Below, piece by piece: positions 1-926 of a stretch of 926 nucleotides of DNA. The notes beneath the pieces were generated by a model. It was not told where the DNA came from, searched no databases, and saw only the letters and a list, made by a program, of their open reading frames with translations. This stretch comes from Escherichia coli (lineage in GTDB: Bacteria; Pseudomonadota; Gammaproteobacteria; Enterobacterales; Enterobacteriaceae), in NCBI RefSeq assembly GCF_003334335.1, contig NZ_QOWQ01000138.1; one strand, 5' to 3'. The translations under genes and the position numbers were made by a program. How positions within the stretch are numbered: the stretch's first letter is position 1; every line of letters begins with the position of its first letter.

Positions 1-34
1 TCCGGATGAGTTTGTGGTGGTACAGGTGAAATAA
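1..34 (+). CDS. 3' end of an upstream gene (partial, start outside window); possibly the major capsid protein gene by lambda-like synteny
   Basis: Only the frame beginning at position 2 is open from the window edge (..PDEFVVVQVK*), ending at TAA 32..34. The other two + frames hit stops at 7..9 and 27..29. The stop lies 8 nt upstream of the hairpin at 43..61. In lambda the gene before FI is E (major capsid), but 10 residues are far too few to confirm identity. Confidence 0.35.
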   Translation, partial: PDEFVVVQVK

Positions 35-42
35 TCCGTGAG

Positions 43-71
43 CGGGGGCGAAATGCCCCCGTGTCTTTTTT
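43..71 (+). terminator. Intrinsic-terminator-like element: 7-bp all-GC stem (43..49 CGGGGGC / 55..61 GCCCCCG), 5-nt loop (gaaat), followed by tgtc and a T6 run (66..71)
   Basis: Perfect inverted repeat read directly from the sequence, then a T-rich tract (7 of the 10 nt after the stem are T). The T-run starts 4 nt after the stem rather than immediately, so it may be a partial terminator or an mRNA-stabilising 3' hairpin rather than a strong terminator. Confidence 0.5.
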
Positions 72-75
72 CACA

Positions 76-80
76 GGGGG
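76..80 (+). promoter_or_regulatory. Putative Shine-Dalgarno (GGGGG) for the FI-like gene
   Basis: G-rich purine run ending 6 nt upstream of ATG 87. It is a weak match to the AGGAGG consensus. Confidence 0.45.
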
Positions 81-86
81 CTGGAT

Positions 87-455
87 ATGGCAACAAAAGA
101 AGAAAATCAGAAACGTCTTCGTGAACTGGCTGGCCTGCTGGGGCGCGAGGCGGATATGTCGGGGAGTGCAGCGGATATCGCACAGCGTGTGGCAGAGTGG
201 GAAGAGGAGGTTTGCGCATCGGAAAATGAAATCGCAGATGTTGATGATACCGTTTATGAGCAGGCATACAGGAACACCGGTGAGGATGCTTTCGGTATTC
301 TGGAACGTATCATGCTTCTGAAGTGTTTTTACCTGTGCGGTGTTGACGATGAAACAGGTGAGCCTGTTGAGCATGTTGATGCTGGCAGAGTAATTCTGAT
401 GCCCCCCTCAGTGGCAAAAGACATGGTCAGGAGTGGAATGGCCGTTTATGCGTGA
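87..455 (+). CDS. FI: DNA-packaging protein FI-like (lambda gpFI family), 122 aa
   Basis: Complete ORF from ATG 87 to TGA 453..455 with a G-rich RBS upstream. It sits immediately upstream of clear gpFII and gpZ homologs, as in lambda (E-FI-FII-Z). Its size is close to lambda gpFI (about 130 aa). The N-terminus (MATKEE..RLRELAG..) and C-terminus resemble lambda gpFI as recalled from memory, with an acidic central segment. My recall of gpFI is imperfect, so the call rests mainly on synteny. Confidence 0.8.
   Translation: MATKEENQKRLRELAGLLGREADMSGSAADIAQRVAEWEEEVCASENEIADVDDTVYEQAYRNTGEDAFGILERIMLLKCFYLCGVDDETGEPVEHVDAGRVILMPPSVAKDMVRSGMAVYA
429..433 (+). promoter_or_regulatory. Putative Shine-Dalgarno (AGGAG) for the FII-like gene, inside the 3' end of FI
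   Basis: AGGAG at 429..433 lies 14 nt upstream of ATG 448, which is a long spacing. Initiation may also depend on coupling to FI termination at 453..455. Confidence 0.4.
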
Positions 456-801
456 TTTTCAGAATGCCTTCGATGCTGCCCTCGCCGGGGTGGACAGCAC
501 GATTGTTGAAGTGATGGGACTCTGTGCGCAGTTCACCTCGGGGGCACAGCGTGGTGGCGAAGTTCAGGGGGTTTTTGACGATCCGGAGTCGCTGGGTTTT
601 GCCGGTGGCGGGGTCCGTATTGAAGGAAGCAGCCCGTCATTATTTGTGCGGACGGATACGGTTCGGGCTGTGCGGCGTGGTGACACGCTGACCATTAACG
701 GCGAGATGTTCTGGGTGGATCGTGTTTCTCCGGATGACGGGGGAAGCTGTTATCTCTGGCTCAACCGTGGGCAACCACCCGCTGTTAACCGGCGACGATA
801 A
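448..801 (+). CDS. FII: Head-tail joining / tail attachment protein FII-like (lambda gpFII family), 117 aa
   Basis: From ATG 448 the product is MRDFQNAFDAALAGVD...GVFDDPES..GVRIEGSSPSLFVRTDTVR..RRGDTLTI....FWVDRVSPDDGGSCYLWLNRGQPPAVNRRR. This closely matches lambda gpFII as recalled, including the MADFDNLFDAA-type N-terminus and the ...SPDDGGSC.LWL.RG.PPAVNRRR C-terminus, and the length equals lambda gpFII (117 aa). ATG 448 overlaps the FI stop (ATGCGTGA). The ORF track starts at GTG 433, which would add 5 residues; I prefer 448 on homology grounds. Confidence 0.88.
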   Translation: MRDFQNAFDAALAGVDSTIVEVMGLCAQFTSGAQRGGEVQGVFDDPESLGFAGGGVRIEGSSPSLFVRTDTVRAVRRGDTLTINGEMFWVDRVSPDDGGSCYLWLNRGQPPAVNRRR

Positions 802-805
802 ACGC

Positions 806-812
806 AGGGTGA
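806..812 (+). promoter_or_regulatory. Putative Shine-Dalgarno (AGGGTGA) for the Z-like gene
   Basis: Purine-rich SD-like motif ending 4 nt upstream of ATG 817, within the 15-nt FII-Z intergenic gap. Confidence 0.5.
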
Positions 813-816
813 AATT

Positions 817-926
817 ATGGCGATAAAAGGGCTTGATCAGGCGATTGATAATCTGAGCCGGGTTCGTAAAAACGCCATTCCGGCGGCTTCAGCAATGACG
901 ATTAACCGCGTGGCCACAACGGCGAT
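817..926 (+). CDS. Z: Tail completion protein Z-like (lambda gpZ family), 5' partial: first 36 codons, continues beyond window
   Basis: ATG 817 opens a frame with no stop to the window end, translating MAIKGLDQAIDNLSRVRKNAIPAASAMTINRVATTA. This closely resembles the lambda gpZ N-terminus as recalled (MAIKGLEQAVENLSR...AAMAINRVA..). It has an RBS upstream and follows FII as in lambda. It is absent from the ORF track only because no stop codon falls in the window. Confidence 0.85.
   Translation, partial: MAIKGLDQAIDNLSRVRKNAIPAASAMTINRVATTA

Follow-up and report, generated by a model that had tools for sequence, protein, structure and literature searches.

Does this stretch of Escherichia coli DNA, 926 nt long and hereinafter designated the window, hold anything beyond the phage structural genes that its reading frames resemble? 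A first-pass annotation, made from the letters alone, had read it as the E-FI-FII-Z junction of a lambdoid phage on the basis of gene order, orientation, tight spacing and protein resemblance, and had seen in it no sign of cargo or of an undescribed system. The ORF listing places all coding segments on the + strand (ORFs 2–34, 87–455, 448–801 and 817–926), and these four genes stand in the lambda order that had been proposed. The spacing is indeed tight, with a 52-nt gap between E and FI, an 8-nt overlap between FI and FII and a 15-nt gap between FII and Z. The features of the window are as follows.

2..34, + strand: 3′ end of E, major capsid protein; last 10 codons (PDEFVVVQVK) with the TAA stop at 32–34, continuing the 342-aa E CDS of phage PhiR5_1
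42..71, + strand: terminator-like element in the E-FI spacer; a G+C-rich hairpin with its stem at 42–62, GCGGGGGC-GAAAT-GCCCCCGT, followed by the T-run GTCTTTTTTC
87..455, + strand: FI, putative DNA-packaging chaperone, 122 aa
448..455, + strand: FI/FII overlap, ATGCGTGA, read from the sequence; the FII ATG lies inside the last FI codons
448..801, + strand: FII, putative head-tail joining or stopper (head closure Hc1) protein, 117 aa
817..926, + strand: 5′ part of Z, putative tail completion protein; first 36 codons of a gene that encodes 177 aa in PhiR5_1

The phage setting of the window was established by a megablast search against phage records, a check that the first-pass annotation had itself suggested. 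All 926 of 926 bases match positions 32863–33788 of Escherichia phage PhiR5_1 (PV340545.1) at 100% identity, and the products named there in that record are the major capsid protein E (its 3′ end), the DNA packaging protein FI, the head-tail joining protein FII and the tail component Z (its 5′ end). Phage 21 and other lambdoid phages match the window at 85–94% nucleotide identity, and all of them annotate E/FI/FII/Z. The E-FI-FII-Z segment of PhiR5_1 shows no difference from the window; the two are the same sequence, or the window belongs to the prophage that gave rise to PhiR5_1. Our search found no literature on the PhiR5_1 phage set.

The flanks contain the remainder of the late operon, as had been anticipated. 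The 25 kb around the window in PhiR5_1 comprise a complete lambda-order late operon, Nu1-A-W-B-C/Nu3-D-E-FI-FII-Z-U-V-G-T-H-M-L-K-I-J-lom, and the lysis genes precede Nu1 in the late region. Matches to the window occur in 1857 of 5426 complete E. coli genomes, nearly always on the chromosome, where PGAP names the products major capsid protein, gpFI, head-tail joining protein and phage tail protein. The copy in E. coli FORC_069 is 99.9% identical and lies within a full prophage beside yecD/aspS that has the same late operon; the first-pass annotation had likewise taken the window to mark a prophage or phage. What these comparisons show directly is the identity of the sequence, the families of its proteins, the order of its genes and its phage setting. 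The locus is already known and already annotated, and it belongs to a very common E. coli prophage family. We are nearly certain, from sequence comparison, that the window is the head/tail gene junction in the late operon of a temperate lambdoid E. coli phage with a phage-21-type head module.

E. coli lambdoid prophages are often defective, and a truncated FI of 65 aa is present in one related locus; the window might by the same token come from a decaying cryptic prophage, with FI, FII and Z as non-functional remnants. This is very improbable, given that the three reading frames of the window are uninterrupted and of full length, that the window FI is at most a few residues off the FI of many independent prophages, and that the window is identical in sequence to a complete phage genome (PV340545.1) whose propagation host is on record as E. 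coli C.

With the window taken as the head/tail junction of a temperate phage, each ORF falls into the family expected of it by Pfam, PHROG, NCBIfam, PDB sequence or predicted fold, and we encountered neither assignments to unrelated families nor a non-phage locus, the two outcomes that the first-pass annotation had named as contrary to its reading. FII aligns with lambda gpFII over 117 of 117 residues at 70% identity and is 91% identical to phage 21 FII. It matches the solved lambda gpFII (PDB 1K0H/8K37, E 2.8e-51), Pfam PF05354 (4e-18), the NCBIfam tail_join_FII equivalog NF049848 (52.6 bits, cut-off 25) and PHROG 82 (5.5e-51). Because the N-terminus is homologous with that of the lambda protein, we place the start of FII at ATG 448 and not at GTG 433. 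The 36-aa fragment of Z matches PHROG 27 ‘tail completion or Neck1’ (1.2e-9), and the full 177-aa Z of PhiR5_1, which is 68% identical to lambda gpZ, matches Pfam PF06763 Minor_tail_Z (8.6e-59) and PHROG 27 (4.9e-63).

FI is the weakest lambda match among the window genes, at 28% identity (pairwise BLASTP, E 2e-8). The protein, called FI both in PV340545.1 and by PGAP and preceded by a Shine-Dalgarno-like AGGGGG at 75–80, matches Pfam PF14000 Packaging_FI over its full length (9.5e-14, residues 3–119 on model positions 1–131) and PHROG 92 ‘DNA packaging chaperone FI’ (4.6e-40); no NCBIfam model matched it. A PDB sequence search with FI alone, or with a profile of phage-21-type FI from which lambda FI was left out, gave no match to gpFI (2LSM). 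A PDB match to gpFI obtained via alignment A1, which includes lambda FI itself, was set aside as circular. We therefore predicted the FI structure from phage-21-type alleles only, using AlphaFold on a 6-sequence alignment without lambda FI, and obtained a model of moderate confidence (mean pLDDT 72) that divides the protein as follows.

87..221, + strand: predicted N-terminal helical domain of FI, residues 1–45; helices 4–18 and 28–51, pLDDT 84–90; conserved among alleles
222..296, + strand: acidic linker of FI, residues 46–70; predicted disordered, pLDDT <50; hypervariable
297..452, + strand: predicted C-terminal beta-rich domain of FI, residues 71–122; gpFI-C fold in the model

Among PDB folds, the model comes closest to 2LSM, the C-terminal domain of lambda gpFI (target-normalised TM 0.75 over 60 columns; 22% identity, probability 1.00, E 4.6e-3). 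Since the phage-21-type profile misses 2LSM, the homology of the C-terminal domain is drawn from the Pfam match, pairwise BLASTP and this moderate-confidence model. Profile, domain architecture and fold agree, which supports membership of FI in the gpFI family, and with moderate confidence FI appears to follow the two-domain gpFI plan of an N-terminal domain, a flexible linker and a folded, 2LSM-like C-terminal domain. Comparison with a 95.7%-identical copy gives 6 synonymous and 7 nonsynonymous substitutions in FI, too few to show purifying selection on this gene.

These comparisons qualify the resemblance to lambda claimed by the first-pass annotation. Lambda itself (NC_001416 6135–8555) has E-FI-FII-Z in the same order and orientation, and the resemblance stands for FII, Z and E (70%, 68% and 61% identity, respectively); it does not extend far to FI, and the sequence of full-length E, 96% identical to that of phage 21 versus 61% to lambda gpE, assigns the head module to the phage-21 type instead of lambda proper. 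Lambda FI shares the domain plan and C-domain fold that the model predicts for the window FI, and differs in length by 10 residues, the window-type protein (122 aa) being the shorter. FI and FII are separated by an 11-nt gap in lambda and overlap by 8 nt in the window; both phages have a hairpin and T-tract after E, of unrelated sequence. Phage 21 (OL657228.1 / M81255.1) shares the gene order, the post-E hairpin and the FI/FII overlap with the window. Its FI is a different allele of 124 aa, 57% identical overall to the window FI and 46% past residue 41, and its Z has 192 aa, compared with 177 aa in PhiR5_1, at 67% identity.

We infer the biochemical roles of FI, FII and Z, together with FI/FII coupling and any role of the hairpin, from lambda. 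Lambda gpFI helps the terminase-DNA complex (Complex I) to join the prohead and has been proposed to act while bound to the gpE lattice, and its C-terminal domain binds the capsid lattice (PMC4856287); FI-E and FI-A interactions have also been reported (PMC3224144). These chaperone traits, namely terminase-prohead stimulation, gpE lattice binding and absence from virions, are known for lambda gpFI only (PMC4856287, PMC3224144). Lambda gpFII forms a hexameric stopper under the gpW adaptor and offers a beta-hairpin to the tail terminator gpU, as seen by cryo-EM, and gpZ is found in the lambda virion (PMC10721106). A CRISPRi screen in lambda rated each of Fi, Fii, Z and E as essential (PMC10695390). 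Homologues of W and U are present in PhiR5_1.

By homology with lambda, the window would be read from left to right within a long Q-antiterminated late transcript carrying, in order, E, the hairpin and U-tract, FI, FII (its start overlapping the FI stop) and Z. FI would act as a non-virion chaperone that is seated on the prohead gpE lattice through its C-terminal domain and helps the terminase-DNA complex to dock and start packaging. Once the head is full, FII would form a hexameric stopper ring beneath gpW and the portal, giving a binding site for the tail terminator gpU, and Z would serve as the tail completion protein. The 8-nt FI/FII overlap is kept in 82 of 84 related loci, and this conservation suggests that FI and FII are translationally coupled.

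The hairpin at 42–62 and its T-run had gone unmentioned in the first-pass annotation. The hairpin has 9 pairs, 7 of them G-C (consensus scan), and is the strongest terminator-like site within the window. We considered whether hairpin and U-tract are a working attenuator or mRNA 3′-end stabiliser and not incidental, setting a high E/D to low FI/FII/Z ratio, with a U-tract that could also pair with the FI Shine-Dalgarno sequence. The predicted RNA fold is stable (−17.7 kcal/mol, z = −3.7), and lambda carries an unrelated hairpin and T-tract in the equivalent place after E (locus L002, 1164–1200). Across 84 phage-21-type loci the hairpin is nearly invariant, and the one copy that differs is a base shorter on both arms together. 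Folds predicted for the phage-21-type module (window 42–86) and for lambda both pair the U-tract with the purine-rich FI ribosome-binding site. Against this, late transcription of lambdoid phages is Q-antiterminated, so termination after E is expected to be largely overridden, and the flanks of the hairpin are as highly conserved within the phage-21-type family as the hairpin itself, which leaves no covariation signal. The literature searched yielded no paper on the post-E element and no description of a terminator or stem-loop after lambda E. We regard a regulatory role as possible, our credence in it falling somewhat short of even; such a role would add to the reading of the window as a structural-gene junction and would not compete with it. 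The hairpin element may act by making the upstream D-E message more stable or by reducing the expression of FI.

Having assigned every + strand gene to the head/tail junction, we asked whether the window conceals additional coding or RNA content. Its repeats are short, present in two copies and attributable to chance, apart from a single 21-nt TRF row; no tRNA or tmRNA was found in it, and Rfam at a permissive E-value gave nothing for the window beyond chance-level matches, none of them near a gathering score and two of them to eukaryotic snoRNA models that fell far short of it. PADLOC matched no defence protein when run on FI, FII and an alternative + strand ORF of 86 aa (61–321). The earlier statement that the window has no repeat array and no inserted gene is thus upheld. 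Its companion statement, that there is no minus-strand ORF, is true of complete ORFs to the extent that those inside the window are at most 44 aa; it fails for two longer ones that run off the left end. With the flank added, these are an ORF of 137 aa that starts with the ATG at window 374 and one of 116 aa whose ATG lies at window 267; both extend past the left edge into E (L001, the PhiR5_1 locus, 11917–12374), overlapping FI, the hairpin and the end of E.

These antisense ORFs, or the 86-aa + strand ORF, could in principle be a hidden cargo gene overprinted on FI. All three reading frames do exist, and related loci also show stop-free antisense stretches. None of the three, however, matches a PHROG family, and neither the depositor annotation nor PGAP calls any of them. 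Relative to the 95.7%-identical copy, synonymous and nonsynonymous substitutions number 3:12 for the 137-aa ORF, 3:8 for the 116-aa ORF and 4:9 for the 86-aa ORF, compared with 41:7 for E. The translations are rich in Cys, Pro and Phe and do not look protein-like, and the 86-aa ORF begins with a GTG inside the terminator stem. Both antisense starts lie within the stretch of FI that differs between alleles (window ~190–430), and because this stretch is replaced, the antisense ORFs vary in length and start from one FI allele to another. Given the lack of family matches and the mostly nonsynonymous variation, the two antisense ORFs are probably not genes and are not credible as such, and we give almost no credence to an overprinted cargo gene of any of these forms. 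The window as a structural-gene junction therefore shows no defence or moron cargo, whether as an extra gene, a repeat array or an RNA beyond the structural genes. The analysis supports the first-pass conclusion that it contains no undescribed system, with two corrections: the module is of the phage-21 type, and the long antisense ORFs exist, if not as credible genes. The main worth of the analysis is this negative result, a textbook structural-gene junction on which the window can be closed.

Elsewhere in PhiR5_1, the lysis cassette carries an insert of ~1.1 kb between lysozyme R and Rz (L001 2679–3719), which encodes a protein of 231 aa with a match to anti-repressor Ant families (PHROG 63, 1.3e-57) and has three tiny ORFs besides. 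The insert has no PADLOC match and is missing from the otherwise similar FORC_069 prophage.

Within the module, FI contains a sharp divergence island. Among eight phage-21-type modules, E, the spacer, FI up to codon ~30, FII and the beginning of Z all keep a mean pairwise nucleotide identity of 0.90–0.99; only in window ~190–430 (FI residues ~35–115) does it drop to 0.42–0.74, the linker stretch being the lowest of the window at 0.42–0.55. FI residues 1–41 are 80–100% identical among phage-21-type alleles. An IMG/VR scan added 80 further loci (L011–L090) with E at least 95% identical, and three discrete FI alleles, with lengths of 122, 124 and 127 aa, occur in the enlarged set alongside a rare allele of 120 aa and a single truncated copy. 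Past residue 41 the FI alleles are 30–46% identical, whereas E is 95–100% identical. The truncated copy, found in one of the added loci, has 65 aa, with an N-terminus of the 127-aa type followed by a frameshifted tail, as might be expected of a defective prophage or of an error in sequencing.

Within the capsid protein, variation peaks at E residues 148–187 (L001 11447–11566, upstream of the window), and this patch shows a loose association with the FI allele. In a set of 34 distinct E/FI haplotypes, which are phylogenetically non-independent and in which FI allele and E patch are not associated one-to-one, the E positions most informative on the FI allele are 163, 187 and 182, accounting for 0.57, 0.55 and 0.45 of the allele entropy, respectively. 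Positions 258–317, nearer to FI on the DNA, are less informative (0.11–0.36), and in the same 34 haplotypes the E block 148–172 is found only with the 127-aa and 120-aa FI alleles. It is a tentative and rather doubtful proposal that the FI linker and C-terminal domain constitute a diversity hot-spot, with at least three alleles in an otherwise 90–100% conserved module, and that the allele is tied to E 148–187 more than to closer sites in E. The 148–187 patch may be a chaperone-capsid interface that co-varies with FI. Mutations in lambda E called ‘fin’ bypass FI and define an ‘EFi domain’, according to Murialdo & Tzamtzis 1997 as cited in PMC3224144; the coordinates of this domain in lambda gpE were not found in the literature searched. 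If chaperone and capsid are truly co-evolving at an interface, or if host defences sensing FI or the capsid have driven the diversification, the locus would offer a small natural experiment on packaging-chaperone specificity. The hypervariability of FI and its association with the capsid patch are the sole lead of some value from the window, and could guide work on how FI recognises proheads.

Downstream of the window, Z is length-polymorphic (L001 13060–13200), with 177 aa in some copies and 191 or 192 aa in others. Two short stretches of strong divergence, and an indel of 15 residues in comparison with lambda, lie in its basic middle part; Z variants and FI alleles assort independently of each other.
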